From Candidatus Geohabitans tengchongensis (GTDB lineage: Bacteria; Sysuimicrobiota; Sysuimicrobiia; Sysuimicrobiales; Humicultoraceae): a stretch of DNA of 64,000 nt. The notes under the pieces were generated by a model, which was not told the origin of the DNA, did no database searches, and saw only the letters and a list, made by a program, of their open reading frames with translations. Shown piece by piece: positions 7,619 through 17,056 of this stretch. The stretch covers positions 252,061 to 316,060 of the forward strand of contig JAVKIH010000002.1 in assembly GCA_031459625.1 (NCBI GenBank), in the 5' to 3' direction. The translations under genes and the position numbers were made by a program. Numbering within the stretch: the first letter of the stretch is position 1; the number at the start of each line of letters is the position of its first letter.

Positions 7619-8422
7619 ATGCCCCTGCTGCCTCCCCTGACGCGCGTGGAGGCCGTCGAGGCGATGGAGCGGCCCCAGCCGCTGGCGGCAATGGCCGCCT
7701 GCCTCGCCGACCTGGCCCGCCTCAACCGGCTGCTGGGGATGCGCCGCCTGGTGGTGCGCCTCCTCGGGCCGTTCCTGGCCCCCGGTGTGACGACGCTCAC
7801 CCTGGCCGACGTGGCCACCGGGGGCGCCGACCTCCCCCGCGCCTTCGTCGCCTGGGGACGGGCGCGCGGGGTCGCCGTGCGCGTCCTTGCCCTCGACCGG
7901 CACCCTCTGATCGCTACCCTGGCGCAGGAGGCCACAGCCTCCTTCCCCGAGATCGCCGTGGTCGTCGGGGACGCACGGGCGCTCCCGCTGCCCGACGGCG
8001 CGGTGGACGTGGCCATCTGCACGAGTACCCTCCACCACTTCTCCCCGGATGCGGCGGTGGCGGTCCTGCGGGAACTCGACCGGGTGGGGCGGCGCGGCTT
8101 CATCGTCACCGACCTGGTCCGCGCGTGGGGCGCGTATGCCGGGGCCCGGGTCCTGGCCGCCACGGTTCAGCGGAGTCCCATCACCCGGGCGGACGGCCCG
8201 CTCTCGGTGCGGCGCGCCTACACGGTGCCCGAGGTGGAGGCCCTCTGTGCCCGTGCCGGTCTGCGGGAGGTCACCCTCAGACGCCACCCGCTCTTCCGCC
8301 TCTCGCTCGTGTGCCGTCGCCCCGACCCTGACGGCCGGCATCCGCGGCACGGCCGCGTCCGGGCGGCCACACCCCGTGACCGCTGCCGCTACACCGCCGA
8401 TGAGCCCCGTCCAGCGCCCTGA
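7619..8422 (+). CDS. Class I SAM-dependent methyltransferase
   Basis: DLARLNRLLG, ADVATGGAD (motif I), GDARALP, LHHF, DGPLSVRRAYT. Confidence 0.85.
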   Translation: MPLLPPLTRVEAVEAMERPQPLAAMAACLADLARLNRLLGMRRLVVRLLGPFLAPGVTTLTLADVATGGADLPRAFVAWGRARGVAVRVLALDRHPLIATLAQEATASFPEIAVVVGDARALPLPDGAVDVAICTSTLHHFSPDAAVAVLRELDRVGRRGFIVTDLVRAWGAYAGARVLAATVQRSPITRADGPLSVRRAYTVPEVEALCARAGLREVTLRRHPLFRLSLVCRRPDPDGRHPRHGRVRAATPRDRCRYTADEPRPAP

Positions 8423-9653
8423 TGGCGTGGCCGGCCGCCGGGTCGAGGTCGTGGTGGTGGGCGGCGGACCGGCGGGGAGCGCCACCGCCCTCCTCCTGGC
8501 GCGCGCAGGCCGCGACGTCCTGCTCCTCGACGCCCGCCCCTTCCCGCGGCCCAAGCCGTGCGGCGACTACCTGAACCCGGTGGGCGCTCAGGCCCTGGCG
8601 CACCTGGGGCTGGACGGTGCCCTCGCCGACGTGTCCCGGCCGCTGCGCGGGATGGTGATCGTCTCCCCGGGAGGGCGGGAGGTCGCAGCGCCCTTCCAGG
8701 CCGGGCAGGGCCTCTCCGTGCCGCGGGACGCCCTCGATGCCGCGCTCCTCCAGGCCGCCTCCCGCGCCGGCGTCGAGGTGCGCACCGGCGTGCCGGTGAT
8801 CGGCATCGATGGACACGGCGGGGCGCGGGCCGGTGTCCCCCGGCGAGGGACGTGGTGGGTCGAGACCCCGCGCGGACGCGTGGAGGCGCGCGTGCTCGTC
8901 GGCGCCGACGGGTGCCGGTCCCGCGTGGCGGCGGCCGCCGGCCTGGGGGGACCCGGACCGCGGCGGGGCCGCTTCGCCCTGGCCCTGCGCGTGCGGGGCC
9001 TGCGCACCCGGCCCGGCTACGCGGAGATGCACCTGGCGCACGATGCCTACTGTGGCGTCTCCGCGTTCCCCGACGGGTGGGCCAACGTCACCCCCGTGCT
9101 CGCGCCCCGCGGCCTTGATCGCAGGGTGCGCCACGACCCTGCGGCCCTCGACGCCGTGCTGGCGCGATTCCCCCGCCTCCACGCACGCCTGCGCCAGCCG
9201 GGCGTGGAGGTGGCTCCGGGGTGGCGTGCGGTGGGACCGCTGGGGTTCTGGCGCCGCCGGCCGGCCGGGCCGGGCGTCGTGCTGGTCGGCGATGCCGCCG
9301 CCTTCGTCGACCCCTTGACCGGGCAGGGGGTCACGCTCGCCCTCGCCGGCGCAGTGCGCGCCGCCCGGGTCATCGATGCCGCCCTGGCCGACGGCCTCGA
9401 GGGCCACCCTCAGGCCTTCGCCCCGTACGTCCGCTGGCACCGGCGGCGCTACGCCCTCCTCTCCGTCTTCCTGGGCGCCGTCGACGCCGTGGCGCTTCGC
9501 CCTGCGCTCATCGAGCCGGTCGTGGCGGCCTGGGCGCGCTGGCCGGCGCTGGCGTCGGCCTTCCTGGGGCTGATCGGCGGGAGGGCGGCGGGGCCTGCGA
9601 CGGTGCACGATACCGGGATCGGCTGGCTGGCCGCATGCAGACGGAGAGCGTGA
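8400..9653 (+). CDS. FAD-dependent oxidoreductase (geranylgeranyl reductase/aromatic hydroxylase-like)
   Basis: VVGGGPAG, FPRPKPCG, GADG, LVGDAAAFVDPLTGQG; ATG 8400 overlaps the upstream gene. Confidence 0.85.
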   Translation: MSPVQRPDGVAGRRVEVVVVGGGPAGSATALLLARAGRDVLLLDARPFPRPKPCGDYLNPVGAQALAHLGLDGALADVSRPLRGMVIVSPGGREVAAPFQAGQGLSVPRDALDAALLQAASRAGVEVRTGVPVIGIDGHGGARAGVPRRGTWWVETPRGRVEARVLVGADGCRSRVAAAAGLGGPGPRRGRFALALRVRGLRTRPGYAEMHLAHDAYCGVSAFPDGWANVTPVLAPRGLDRRVRHDPAALDAVLARFPRLHARLRQPGVEVAPGWRAVGPLGFWRRRPAGPGVVLVGDAAAFVDPLTGQGVTLALAGAVRAARVIDAALADGLEGHPQAFAPYVRWHRRRYALLSVFLGAVDAVALRPALIEPVVAAWARWPALASAFLGLIGGRAAGPATVHDTGIGWLAACRRRA

Positions 9654-10105
9654 TCGACATCGCCGCGCCCTGGGAGCGGGTGTTCGCCCTGGCCGCCGAC
9701 GTGGAGCGGTGGCCGGAGCGCCTCCCGCACTACCGGTGGGTCCGGGTCCTGGGGCGCGATGGCCCGCGCACGGCCGTGGAGATGGCGGCGCGGCGCGGGC
9801 GCATCCCCGTGCGCTGGCGGGCGGTCCAGGAGGTACGGCCGGCGGAGCGGCGGATCCTCTTCACCCACACCGCCGGGCCGACCCGCGGCATGCGGGTGGA
9901 GTGGTCCTTCACGCCCACGGCCGGCGGGGTGCGCGTACGCGTGCGCCACGACCTGCGCTGGCCCCCGCCGCTGCACTGGGTGGCGCGGTGGGTGGTCGGC
10001 CGCGTCTTCATCACCCACGTGGCCGGCCGGACGCTGCGGCGCGTCAAGGCCCTGGCGGAGCTGACCGAAGCCCCGGGGCAGCCCGCGGGGGAGGGCGAGG
10101 GGTGA
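9635..10105 (+). CDS. SRPBCC/START-fold polyketide cyclase/aromatase-like protein
   Basis: IAAPWERVFALAADVERWPERLPHY, GMRVEWSF; 156 aa. Confidence 0.82.
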   Translation: MQTESVIDIAAPWERVFALAADVERWPERLPHYRWVRVLGRDGPRTAVEMAARRGRIPVRWRAVQEVRPAERRILFTHTAGPTRGMRVEWSFTPTAGGVRVRVRHDLRWPPPLHWVARWVVGRVFITHVAGRTLRRVKALAELTEAPGQPAGEGEG

Positions 10106-11346
10106 CCCGTCGACGCGTCGTCATCACCGGCATCGGGGCGGTGACCCCGGTGGGCCACGGACGGGAGGGGCTGCTGGCGGCCATGCGCGAGGGGCGGTCG
10201 GGGATCGGCCCCATCACCCGTTTCGACGCCAGCGGCTTCGCCTCGCGTATCGCCGGCGAGGTGCGCGACTTCGACCCGCTGGCCTGGATGGACGCCCGCC
10301 GCGCCCGGCGACTGGACCGCTTCGCCCAGTTCGCCGTCGCCGCGGCCCGCCAGGCCGTGGAGGACGCCAACCTGCGGTGGGAGGCGGTGGACCGCGACCG
10401 CGCCGGCGTCTTCATCGGCGCGGCGCTGGGCGGGGCGGCCTTCGCGGAGGAGCAGCACGTCGCCTTCCTGCGCGAGGGGATCCGGCGGGTCAGGCCCACC
10501 CTGGCCCTGGCCGTCTTCAGCGGGTCGGCCTCCTGCAACGTGGCCATCGAGTTCGGGCTGACCGGCCCCACCAGCGCCAACTCCGACTCCTGCACCTCGG
10601 CGGCCATCGCCATCGGCGAGGCCTTCCGGGCCATCCGGGCCGGCGAGGCGGACCTCATCCTGGCCGGCGGGGTGGAGTGCCCGCTCACACCGCTCATCTT
10701 CGGTTCGTTCGACCTGCTGCGCGCCATGTCCACGCGCAACGATGCGCCCGCCGCGGCCTGCCGCCCCTTCGACGCCGGGCGGGACGGGTTCGTCATGGCG
10801 GAGGGTGCAGCGCTGCTGGTGCTGGAGGAGTACGGCCACGCCGTGCGCCGCGACGCCCCGCTCTACGCCGAGGTGCTGGGGTACGGGACCACCAACGACG
10901 CCTACCACATGACCGCCCCGCTGCCCTCGGGGGCGCAGGCGGCGCGGGCGATGCGGCTGGCCATGGCCGACGCCGGGATCGTCCCCGAGCAGGTGGGCTA
11001 CGTGAACGCGCACGCCTCCGGCACGCCGCTCAACGACCCGGTGGAGACGGCGGCGATCAAGCAGGCGCTGGGTCCGTGGGCCTACCGGGTGCCGGTGAGC
11101 GGGACCAAGCCGATGCACGGCCACGCGCTGGGCGCCACTGGCGCCATCGAGGCGGCGCTGTGCGCGCTGGCCATCCGGGAGGCCTACCTGCCGCCCACCC
11201 TCAACCTGGACGTCCCCGACCCCGCCTGCGACCTCGACTACATCCCGCACGTCGGCCGCCCGGCGCGCGTGGACTACGTGCTGAGCAACTCCTTCGGGTT
11301 CGGGGGGATCAACGCCACGCTGGCCTTCGGGCGCCTGGACGGTTAG
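10102..11346 (+). CDS. fabF: Beta-ketoacyl-ACP synthase II-like ketosynthase
   Basis: RRVVITGIG, catalytic SCTS, NAHASGT, KPMHGHALGA, SNSFGFGG; GTG overlaps upstream TGA. Confidence 0.88.
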   Translation: MTRRRVVITGIGAVTPVGHGREGLLAAMREGRSGIGPITRFDASGFASRIAGEVRDFDPLAWMDARRARRLDRFAQFAVAAARQAVEDANLRWEAVDRDRAGVFIGAALGGAAFAEEQHVAFLREGIRRVRPTLALAVFSGSASCNVAIEFGLTGPTSANSDSCTSAAIAIGEAFRAIRAGEADLILAGGVECPLTPLIFGSFDLLRAMSTRNDAPAAACRPFDAGRDGFVMAEGAALLVLEEYGHAVRRDAPLYAEVLGYGTTNDAYHMTAPLPSGAQAARAMRLAMADAGIVPEQVGYVNAHASGTPLNDPVETAAIKQALGPWAYRVPVSGTKPMHGHALGATGAIEAALCALAIREAYLPPTLNLDVPDPACDLDYIPHVGRPARVDYVLSNSFGFGGINATLAFGRLDG

Positions 11347-14954: not shown

Positions 14955-15353
14955 TTATACCCGATCCTCCAGGGCCGCGCGCAGGGCGGCGATGCGCCGA
15001 CGCAACTCGTCCCGCAGCTCGCGCATGTGGTCCAGGTCCCCCGGCCGCGGGTCGGGCAGGGGCCAGTGCAGGGACCGCGCCCCCGGAACCACCGGGCAGG
15101 CCTCTTCCACACAGAGGCCCACGACCAGCGCCACGTCGGGACCCAGCGCCTCGCTCAGCGCCTTGGGACGCTGCGCGGAGATGTCCACCCCCACCTCCCG
15201 CATGACGGCGACGGCCTCGGGCCGCAGGGCAGGTTTCGGCTCCGTGCCCGCGGAGCGCGCCCGCCACCCCGGCGGCGGATCGGCGTTGAAGAGCGCCTCC
15301 GCCATCTGGGAGCGGGCCGTGTTGCCCACTCAGACGAACAGGACGGTCTTCAT
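14955..15353 (-). CDS. arsC: Arsenate reductase (ArsC, LMW-PTP fold), probable selenoprotein with Sec at residue 8
   Basis: ATG 15353 gives MKTVLFV-[TGA 15332-15330]-VGNTARSQMAEALF, then SAGT, MREVGVDIS, CVEEACP, HWPLPDP; the TGA occupies the C of the CX5R motif. Confidence 0.82.
15291..15329 (-). promoter_or_regulatory. Candidate bacterial SECIS element
   Basis: 3' of UGA, CGCUCC (+16..21) can pair with GGA(G)GCG (+30..36) around a G-containing loop CAGAUGGC; folded by eye. Confidence 0.5.
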
Positions 15354-15429
15354 GGCGTTGAGCATAGTGGGCGAGAGGAAGGCTCTCAACCCTGTGGAAC
15401 CTTGGGGAGAGGTCCGGAAGGAGGGCGCC

Positions 15430-16044
15430 ATGGTCGGACTCTTGCCGCGCGAGGAGGTCTTCTTCGCCCTGTTCGCGCAGGCCGCTGAGAACATCCTGCA
15501 GGCGGCGCGCCTGCTCAAGGCCATGCTGGAGCGCTACGAGCGGGTCCCCGAACAGGCGGCGGCCATCAAGGCGACGGAGGAGCGGGGCGACGAGATCATC
15601 CACCAGATCACGGATCGCCTCAACCGCACCTTCATCACCCCGCTGGACCGCGAGGACATCCACGCGCTGGCCCGCCAGCTGGACAACGTCATCGACTGGA
15701 TCGAGGCGGTGGCCGCCCGCCTGGTGGACTACCGCGTGACCCAGCCCACACCGGCGGCGGTGGAGCTGGCGCACATCATCGTGCACATGGCCGAGGCCAT
15801 GGTCGAGGCCGTGCGGAACCTGCGCCGGCTCGACCGCGTCGAGGGGCAGCTCGAGGAGATCCACCGCCTGGAGAACCTGGCCGACCACGTCTACCGCGAG
15901 GCCATCGCCCGCCTCTTCGCCGAGAACGGCCAGCCCCTCGAGGTCATCAAGTGGAAGGACATCTACGAGACCCTCGAGCGCGCCACCGACCAGGCCGAGG
16001 ACGTGGCCGACGTGCTGGCGGGTATCCGGGCCAAGCGGACGTAG
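15430..16044 (+). CDS. DUF47 family phosphate transport regulator (Pit accessory)
   Basis: LLPREEVFF, EERGD, TFITPLDREDI, LENLAD, IKWKDIYETLE. Confidence 0.92.
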   Translation: MVGLLPREEVFFALFAQAAENILQAARLLKAMLERYERVPEQAAAIKATEERGDEIIHQITDRLNRTFITPLDREDIHALARQLDNVIDWIEAVAARLVDYRVTQPTPAAVELAHIIVHMAEAMVEAVRNLRRLDRVEGQLEEIHRLENLADHVYREAIARLFAENGQPLEVIKWKDIYETLERATDQAEDVADVLAGIRAKRT

Positions 16045-16060: not shown

Positions 16061-17056
16061 GTGGAGCTCCACCTGCCGCTCGGCCTCATCCCCGTCCTGC
16101 TGCTGGTGCTGGCCGCGGAGTTCGTGAACGGGTGGACCGATGCGCCCAACGCCATCGCCACCGTGGTCTCCACCCGCGTCCTCTCCCCCGGGGTCGCGGT
16201 GATCATGGCCGCCGTGCTCAACTTCGTCGGGGCGCTCAGCGGGACCGCCGTGGCCATCACCATCGGCCGGGGGTTCGTGGACGCCCGCGTCGTGGACACG
16301 GTCACCGTGGCCGCGGCCATGGTGGCCATCGTGCTGTGGAGCACGCTGGCCTGGCTGCGCGGCCTGCCCACCAGCGAGAGCCACGCGCTGGTGGCGGCGC
16401 TCACCGGGGCCGGGTTCGCCACCGGCGGCACGGCGGCGCTGGAGGCCAGCGGGTGGGTGAAGACGGTGCAGGGCCTGGGCATCTCCACCTTCCTGGGCTT
16501 CGCCGGCGGCTTCCTCCTCATGCTGGCCATCGCCTGGGGGTTCCGGCGGGTGCCGCTCGGCACGGTGCGCCGCCTCTTCGGCCGTCTCCAGATCCTCTCC
16601 GCCGCCTTCATGGCCTTCAGCCACGGCACCGGCGACGGGCAGAAGTTCATGGGGGTCTTCACCCTGGCCCTGGTGCTGGGCGGGGTGCTGCCGGAGTTCC
16701 ACATCCCGCTATGGGTGATCGCCGTCATCGCCGTCACCATGGGGCTGGGCACCGCGGTGGGCGGGTGGCGGATCGTCCACACCATGGGGCTGCGGCTGAC
16801 GAAGCTGGAGCCCTACCAGGGGTTCGCGGCCGAGACCGCCGCGGCGACGCTGATCACCCTGGCCGCCCACGTGGGGATCCCCGTCAGCACCACCCACACC
16901 ATCAACACGGCGATCATGGGCGTGGGGGCCACCCGCCGGCTCTCGGCGGTGCGGTGGGGGGTGGGGGCGGAGATCGTCACCGCCTGGGTCCTGACCTTCC
17001 CGGCCTGCGCGCTCATCGGCGCGCTGGTGACCTACCTGCTGCGCTGGATCCTGTAG
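16061..17056 (+). CDS. pit: Inorganic phosphate transporter (PiT family)
   Basis: NGWTDAPNAIATVVST, GLPTSESHAL, SHGTGDGQK, GIPVSTTH. Confidence 0.93.
   Translation: MELHLPLGLIPVLLLVLAAEFVNGWTDAPNAIATVVSTRVLSPGVAVIMAAVLNFVGALSGTAVAITIGRGFVDARVVDTVTVAAAMVAIVLWSTLAWLRGLPTSESHALVAALTGAGFATGGTAALEASGWVKTVQGLGISTFLGFAGGFLLMLAIAWGFRRVPLGTVRRLFGRLQILSAAFMAFSHGTGDGQKFMGVFTLALVLGGVLPEFHIPLWVIAVIAVTMGLGTAVGGWRIVHTMGLRLTKLEPYQGFAAETAAATLITLAAHVGIPVSTTHTINTAIMGVGATRRLSAVRWGVGAEIVTAWVLTFPACALIGALVTYLLRWIL

Follow-up and report, generated by a model that had tools for sequence, protein, structure and literature searches.

The arsenate reductases of COG1393 have a glutaredoxin/thioredoxin-like fold. Two of these families, TIGR00014 and NF041106 (COG1393 according to PMC9312934 and PMC1088965), are the selenocysteine (Sec)-containing arsenate reductases that appear in Table 1 of a 2026 inventory of 119 selenoprotein families (PMC13188914), and they carry Sec at the catalytic Cys in UxxS and UxxC motifs, respectively. 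The ArsC of S. aureus is described as working by a three-thiol relay and is contrasted with the LMW-PTPs (PMC9807832, PMC8949286); in the account of PMC9807832, the distal Cys pair is what separates arsenate reductases from LMW-PTPs. The published model of the bacterial SECIS has terms for stem, loop, early G, energy, and distance (PMC13188914), and the loops are placed 16 to 37 nt from the UGA (PMC13188914, PMC10778597). According to the BSepDB text, a canonical SECIS is found in 87.4% of entries and the rest are left unexplained (PMC13326102). Table 1 of the 119-family inventory has no PF01451 entry (PMC13188914), neither ArsC, PF01451, nor phosphatase turned up in the BSepDB text or in one supplement (PMC13326102), and a term search of deep-Sep returned no LMW-PTP-fold/ArsC selenoprotein. 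A search of openly accessible literature found no LMW-PTP-fold selenoprotein, and one of listings, abstracts, and PMC10778597 found no looped-out bacterial SECIS.

The window analyzed here is a stretch of 64,000 nt from the genome of Candidatus Geohabitans tengchongensis (G000; 2.76 Mb, 94% complete). It contains a gene that we call Sec-ArsC, and at a probability of roughly 0.6 we read it as an intact, phylum-wide Sec gene, likely for a thioredoxin-type arsenate reductase of LMW-PTP fold, whose predicted SECIS hairpin at +74..+91 after the UGA would be folded back to the codon by a long-range helix. The coding sequence (14955..15353, minus strand) runs from ATG 15353 to TAA 14955 as a single frame with one internal TGA at codon 8 (15332-15330). 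Read with TGA as U, it gives a protein of 132 amino acids that begins MKTVLFV-U-VGNTARSQMAE, belongs to PF01451, and contains U-VGNTA-R-S, C81-VEEA-C86, and W97-PLP-D101-P. A sequence-only reading of the window had already joined open reading frames 15330-15524 and 14955-15329, into which the gene is split, across a TGA at the Cys of a CX5R motif, and had noted CVEEAC, WPLPDP, the normal length, and a -10-like TATGCT upstream; all of this holds. The TATGCT (15361..15366, minus strand) lies 7 nt 5' of the ATG, and there is no Shine-Dalgarno sequence ahead of ATG 15353, so the mRNA is likely leaderless. Similar TAGCAT/TATCCT elements lie 6 nt 5' of the ATG in three relatives (L034, L047, and L136). 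At the other end of the gene, the arsC stop codon is overlapped by a perfect TATAAT (14959-14954, minus strand); this element stands 60 nt 5' of rplY and is likely to serve as promoter for rplY-pth. In close relatives, the protein continues for another 13 to 26 residues at the C terminus.

The in-frame TGA is kept in all the close homologues found in the phylum. Homologue searches at order and phylum level covered the same 94 genomes and yielded 43 close matches (59-99% identity) in 40 of them, across three families. Each match has exactly one TGA, read at codon 8 in 43/43 and never replaced by TAA or TAG, and the frame is conserved on both sides; two pairs among the 43 show no difference within the compared stretch. 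The TGA is also present in another two copies that are short or frameshifted, and one more match lacks the N terminus. These close homologues are labelled "Armatimonadota bacterium" at NCBI, and a phylum with a single order next to Armatimonadota would fit Sysuimicrobiota/CSP1-3 (PMC11604079). Remoter matches, down to E 1e-25 and at most 55% identical, are free of stops and have TGC or TGT in the three that were fetched, and a scan of the genome contigs with Cys at position 8 found only distant Cys homologues, which served as controls. Synonymous sites outside the RNA helices described below are saturated across the family. A pseudogene, an assembly error, or a recent nonsense mutation, for which sporadic TGAs at this codon in unrelated ArsC genes could be cited, is thus already refuted for the family as a whole by a TGA kept down to 59% identity in intact frames, and we give it a negligible chance at this locus. 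All 101 sampled words were present in four sequencing runs from one study, one of them an RNA run and three possibly the source of this DNA; this does not amount to independent support.

The sporadic TGAs come from a metagenome search whose pattern required TGA and which is therefore silent on the TGA/TGC ratio. Of the 84 loci that it matched, 65 belong to the clade; in the 19 others, the frame closes within 107 codons in 14 cases and is full length in 5 (4 distinct). The full-length out-of-clade frames (L156, L210, L195, L202, and L203) are single ArsC-like cases that fall among Cys families and, by eye, lack the helices P1 and P2 described below; we treat them as sporadic, and they may be Sec forms of separate origin or else new nonsense mutations. 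A tree of 66 proteins, built with position 8 masked, included 29 of the 80 distinct Sec genes analyzed below. It places the Sec genes on a single branch (98/97), within which the two Cys forms are nested, with a sister group that lacks resolution. This topology fits a single gain of Sec followed by two apparent reversions to Cys.

The Sec machinery needed to read this codon is present. In the source genome, selA adjoins selB, the tRNA-Sec gene lies 1.5 kb beyond, and all score above cut-off, as does selD, which has an in-frame TGA of its own; with selA, selB, selC, and selD all found, the objection that the machinery might be missing fails. Among the 40 carrier genomes, selA or selB was found in 36; each of the remaining four (73-93% complete) has a TGA-containing selD, and two have tRNA-Sec. 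Reassignment of TGA was considered and rejected: TGA ends 551 of 796 long open reading frames in the source genome, which is the standard code with TGA as the main stop, and the only tRNA with a UCA anticodon among 52 called is tRNA-Sec. The same two facts speak against the UGA being read otherwise, as Cys or Trp. A related proposal is that translation starts after the UGA, at GTG 15329 or at the ATG of MAE, to give a product without the nucleophile. Such products are indeed what is called in public databases: among the 120 best-matching public proteins, the P-loop Cys is missing from 118, most of which start at MAE, and the other two, which are in-clade, have a Cys there (P0012 and P0060). 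However, over the seven codons that precede the TGA, a start codon and the V-L/I/V-F-V pattern are kept, with conservation of the 80/80 type, and these codons are thus translated. We consider readings without Sec very improbable and regard the 118 proteins as the truncation that the sequence-only reading had expected of annotation pipelines, which leaves Sec-ArsC proteins in the databases without their catalytic residue. The UGA aligns to a Cys, UGA and frame are conserved, and selA, selB, selC, and selD are present, the features by which bacterial selenoproteins are recognized; judged from sequence comparison, Sec is very likely inserted at codon 8.

The RNA downstream of the UGA was analyzed in 103 in-clade genes, from which short and duplicate rows were dropped to leave 80 distinct genes, gap-free over +1..+100. 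The conserved structure has two parts. A long-range helix, P1, joins a 5' arm at +13..+22 after the UGA (15308..15317, minus strand) to a 3' arm at +62..+71 (15259..15268, minus strand), identified by pairing in the family alignment: +13..+19 pair with +65..+71, followed by +21/+63 and +22/+62. Hairpin P2 (+74..+91; 15239..15256, minus strand), likely the SelB-binding SECIS hairpin, pairs +74..+79 with +86..+91; in the source gene it has 6 bp, the loop CGGGCA (C-G-G-G-N-A at 15250-15245), and an energy of -9.3 kcal/mol. Codon choice in the helices is strict, with codons counted from the UGA: Ala5 is GCC in 71/76 and Arg6 is CGC in 79/80 for P1, and for P2 Ser26 is TCC in 80/80, Ala27 is GCG in 79/80, and Thr29 is ACG in 79/80, with Gly28 between them free. 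On a tree made with the helix columns masked, 0 to 5 changes account for five synonymous P1/P2 columns, against 9 to 28 for the remaining 24 conserved ones. Together, P1 and P2 have 95.8% of cells paired, 53 of them changed on both sides, against 32-47% paired in slid controls. The P1 pair +15/+69 is kept in 78/80 genes with seven C-G to G-C flips, and the P2 pair +75/+90 is kept in 80/80 with six pair types, where a synonymous change goes along with a Glu/Asp exchange. Few independent events lie behind these covariations, 3 shared changes for the first pair and 4 for the second, and some unrelated pairs reach equal scores. Two middle pairs of P1 are lost in 9/80 genes. Mean pairing probability over the family is 0.54 for P1 and 0.59 for P2; in the source gene it is 0.65 for P1 and, for P2, 0.26 at 37 C, rising to 0.44 at 60 C. 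RNAalifold with default scoring on +1..+100 recovers most of P2 and misses P1, RIBOSUM scoring gives both, and +1..+60 gives no structure.

Comparison with Cys genes sets these helices apart. The P1/P2 motif occurs in 0/56 Cys homologues and in 0/9 same-phylum Cys paralogues (three loci are in both sets). A G-loop hairpin of -7.5 kcal/mol or lower is found in 73/80 Sec genes with its start at +80, and in 5/56 Cys genes at scattered positions; in the canonical window, +17..+38, the figures are 7/80 and 5/56. Within the P2 loop, G82 and G83 are fixed and N84 is free, a pattern shared with the G[G/U]N loops in arsM, the AhpD-like gene, selD, and others in the source genome, although the fixation of G82-G83 is also explained by the Gly codon. 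P2 shares with the canonical bacterial SECIS (bSECISearch, E. coli fdhF type) a stem of 4-16 bp, a loop of 3-9 nt with a G in its first two positions, an MFE of at most -7.5 kcal/mol, and a place inside the coding region. It differs in distance, the loop beginning 80 nt and not 16-37 nt past the UGA, with a second conserved helix bridging the gap, and its 6-bp stem compares with 8-9 bp in the canonical hairpins of the source genome. Of the other TGA genes of that genome, 6/7 have hairpins, mostly of 8 to 9 bp, whose loops lie at +18..+34 and carry a G in first or second place, and the DUF3179-like gene has no near hairpin by the G-loop rule. At +18..+34 the Sec-ArsC gene has nothing comparable, the best candidate reaching -4.0 kcal/mol.

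The sequence-only reading had placed a hairpin with a G-containing loop 16-36 nt after the UGA. A hairpin can form at +11..+36 (15294..15319, minus strand; -10.5 kcal/mol, z 0.23) when folded alone, but in its loop, CCCAGAU, neither of the two leading positions is a G, and this hairpin is not the structure that is conserved; a conserved RNA structure does exist, at +74..+91 with a long-range helix. Sec insertion by way of this near hairpin, with P1 and P2 kept for ribosome pausing, mRNA stability, or a regulator site, would agree with the published loop distance of 16-37 nt (PMC13188914, PMC10778597), and across the family the near hairpin is 80.9% paired with a covariation score of 0.089, as high as which only 1 of 500 shuffles came. 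Its central pairs are often broken, though, canonical near hairpins are no commoner than in Cys genes, and P2 is missing from Cys genes; we rejected it as the SECIS and think this route unlikely. We are fairly confident, from conservation and covariation, that P1 and P2 together constitute the SECIS in a looped-out form, and we infer that SelB binds P2 from its fit to the published SECIS model in all but distance (PMC13188914).

Such a SECIS could work as follows. With the UGA in the A site, P1 would start where the mRNA exits the ribosome, and its closure would loop out about 40 nt. P2 would then stand within 2 nt of P1, giving the G-G-N loop an effective path of some 21 to 22 nt from the UGA, like that of the +18..+34 loops in other selenoprotein genes of the source genome. 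The element lies in the next conserved motif, S-A-G-T, likely because the P-loop codons (N-x-A-R-S-Q-M-A-E) leave no room nearby. An engineered distant SECIS is reportedly functional in E. coli.

The protein itself has several, though not all, of the features of a thioredoxin-coupled arsenate reductase. It is the sole PF01451 match in the source genome, and an AlphaFold2 model (mean pLDDT 94) predicts four strands with flanking helices in the expected strand-helix order. The likely Sec (TGA 15330..15332, minus strand) aligns to Cys10 of S. aureus ArsC as the P-loop nucleophile. The P-loop U-V-G-N-T-A-R-S (15309..15332, minus strand; Arg14 at 15314-15312) follows the C(U)-x5-R-S pattern in sequence and predicted model, and two distal cysteines form the putative resolving pair C81-x4-C86 (15096..15113, minus strand), whose spacing of 4 is kept in 80/80 genes and equals that of A. 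fulgidus ArsC 1Y1L; Asn11, Arg14, Ser15, and C-x4-C are invariant in 80/80. An LMW phosphatase would be expected to have an invariant acid Asp and no distal Cys relay, and neither is the case here, since the acid-loop Asp101 (15051..15053, minus strand) is D in 41, N in 34, and other or not read in 5 of the 80 genes. Among solved structures, searches by sequence rank ArsC first (E 1e-17 to 1e-11), with the YwlE phosphatases behind (1e-6). Curated ArsC models score well short of their cut-offs (TIGR02691, 78.7 against 174.3 bits; PRK13530, 76.9 against 215), and the protein falls below every NCBIfam ArsC cut-off.

With the ArsC of S. aureus pI258 (1LJL/1JF8), B. subtilis (1JL3), and C. glutamicum (3T38), the protein shares the fold, the X5-R-S P-loop with its Asn, the distal Cys pair, the W-x-x-x-D-P loop, and the length. 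Unlike those enzymes, it has a Sec nucleophile, CX4C in place of CX6C, an acid Asp that is replaced in about half of the family, scores below the NCBIfam cut-offs, and phosphate genes around it in place of an ars operon. A. fulgidus ArsC 1Y1L, the best solved match for an Asn-type member, shares the HNTARS P-loop, C-x4-C, and the acid-loop Asn, but is only distantly similar (E 5.7e-17). We had considered that Sec might make the acid Asp dispensable; 1Y1L, which we take to be a Cys enzyme (its nucleophile residue is absent from the alignment shown), also has Asn, so that Asn is not special to Sec forms and the idea is weakened. The LMW phosphatases (YwlE 4KK3; PF01451) share fold and P-loop, but the YwlE match is weak (E 1e-6, N-terminal half only), and the YwlE type needs the Asp and has no distal Cys pair. 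The Sec forms of TIGR00014 and NF041106 share Sec at the catalytic Cys of an "arsenate reductase" but are an unrelated family; Sec-ArsC matches neither model at E 0.001, and its motif is U-x5-R. The earlier description of Sec-containing ArsC-like proteins as merely rare therefore needs correction, as the published Sec arsenate reductases have another fold and the LMW-PTP-fold form is absent from Table 1 of the inventory (PMC13188914). Sec-ArsC very likely represents a family of selenoenzymes that the catalogues checked do not list.

Its proposed catalysis would be a Sec version of the three-thiol relay. By analogy with the ArsC of S. aureus and B. subtilis, the Sec8 selenolate would attack arsenate held by Arg14, Cys81 would release arsenite with formation of a Sec8-Cys81 selenenylsulfide, Cys86 would take the bond over, and a thioredoxin-like protein would re-reduce Cys81-Cys86. 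Of the earlier proposal of a Sec-dependent, thioredoxin-type arsenate reductase, the Sec part is supported by the TGA in 43/43 close homologues, the Sec machinery, and the conserved RNA; that arsenate is the physiological substrate is probable on sequence features.

The genomic context bears on the substrate. Divergent from Sec-ArsC, which lies upstream of rplY-pth, is a gene at 15430..16044 (plus strand), likely for a phosphate-transport regulator that we take to be DUF47/PhoU-like, partly on the family of like-placed genes in relatives, followed by a PiT-family inorganic phosphate transporter (16061..17056, plus strand; NF033774 PitA E 8.7e-23, below cut-off). Within about 1.5 kb, phoU, pstB, pstS, DUF47, or PiT is found at 25/43 copies, an inorganic pyrophosphatase, which often overlaps the Sec-ArsC gene, at 14/43, and either at 29/43; the copies are related and not independent, and short contigs narrow the view. 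Molybdate transport genes stand beside 9/43 copies and an ArsP/ArsE-like pair beside 1/43, so an ars-operon context with an arsenite exporter is seen at 1/43 loci, and the source genome (94% complete) gave no match to Acr3, ArsB, or ArsP. Acr3 scores above cut-off in 7/40 carrier genomes and, where coordinates are comparable (G021 and G069), lies beside a separate stop-free ArsC match; ArsM-like genes are present in 38/40 carriers. No Pho box was seen by eye upstream of Sec-ArsC. This context, the lack of an arsenite exporter match in the source genome, and the phosphatase activity often found in thioredoxin-type ArsC (according to PMC8949286) speak for a real selenoprotein with another physiological substrate, either a phosphatase or an enzyme that reduces some other oxyanion (e.g., thioarsenate) in phosphate metabolism. 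Yet CX4C is invariant in 80/80 and the Asp that a phosphatase requires is present in only 41/80, Sec usually replaces a redox Cys as stated in PMC13188914, and links between pst/phoU and arsenic genes are on record in PMC3834237. We regard another substrate as doubtful but worth keeping in view.

Arsenate reduction remains our preferred activity. The enzyme would then be a housekeeping guard that reduces arsenate entering through phosphate transporters, the arsenite passing to ArsM with no efflux pump; such a guard on phosphate uptake is likely and fits the context, which leaves equal room for another substrate. We lean slightly toward a broader reading, in which Sec-ArsC represents both a second bacterial SECIS architecture, about 80 nt away with its spacer looped out by a coding-sequence helix that frees the codons after the UGA, and the first CX5R phosphate-loop selenoenzyme, a phosphate-uptake-linked arsenate reductase, and in which looping out could explain part of the 12.6% of BSepDB entries without a canonical SECIS. 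If so, a new fold, with the CX5R phosphate-binding loop of ArsC and the LMW phosphatases, would join the selenoproteome, and Sec and Cys could be compared directly in one of the best-studied thiol-relay enzymes. The 16-37 nt rule would be broken by a concrete structure, one that can be tested with three point mutations. The looped-out SECIS would also offer a searchable model for those BSepDB entries and a design principle for inserting Sec without altering the residues right after it.

Two neighborhoods drew attention in their own right. In genome G006 (L133:2645-3496, minus strand, with a like gene in L134), a gene that joins a DUF47/PhoU-like domain and a winged helix of the OmpR/PhoB type in one fusion lies upstream of phoU, Sec-ArsC, and pyrophosphatase. 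Within the window, genes for a methyltransferase, a flavin-dependent oxidoreductase, an SRPBCC-like cyclase, and a FabF-like ketosynthase stand in a row at 7619-11346 (plus strand) and by eye resemble a small cluster for type II polyketide synthesis or lipid modification.

Other TGA genes of the source genome were found by a coding-potential scan and motif reading. Likely selenoprotein genes encode an ArsM-like protein (G000:C20:5511, plus strand), a TIGR02187 protein disulfide oxidoreductase (G000:C34:9464, plus strand), an AhpD-like peroxidase (G000:C17:21069, minus strand), a Uxx-star-like glutaredoxin (G000:C1:333700, minus strand), SelD (G000:C1:5930, plus strand), and a protein without an NCBIfam match that we presume to be DUF3179-like (G000:C1:343470, plus strand). 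The molybdopterin oxidoreductases of this genome have no TGA in any match, which leaves no Sec formate dehydrogenase for comparison. A class I SAM methyltransferase gene with F-S-W-S-L-TGA-Cys (L281:527-1285, equal to G000:C10:13426-14184, minus strand; relatives L283-L301) scores below the cut-off of every NCBIfam model and has relatives in 24/94 genomes. Eighteen of the 20 loci read have a tandem TGA-TGA, likely adjacent Sec-Sec, and two have TGA-TGY. All 20 carry a near-invariant canonical hairpin, GGGCAUG-GUN-(C/G)AUGCCC, after the TGA, and MduS, listed with CxxU, is a possible comparison for this TGA-Cys methyltransferase.
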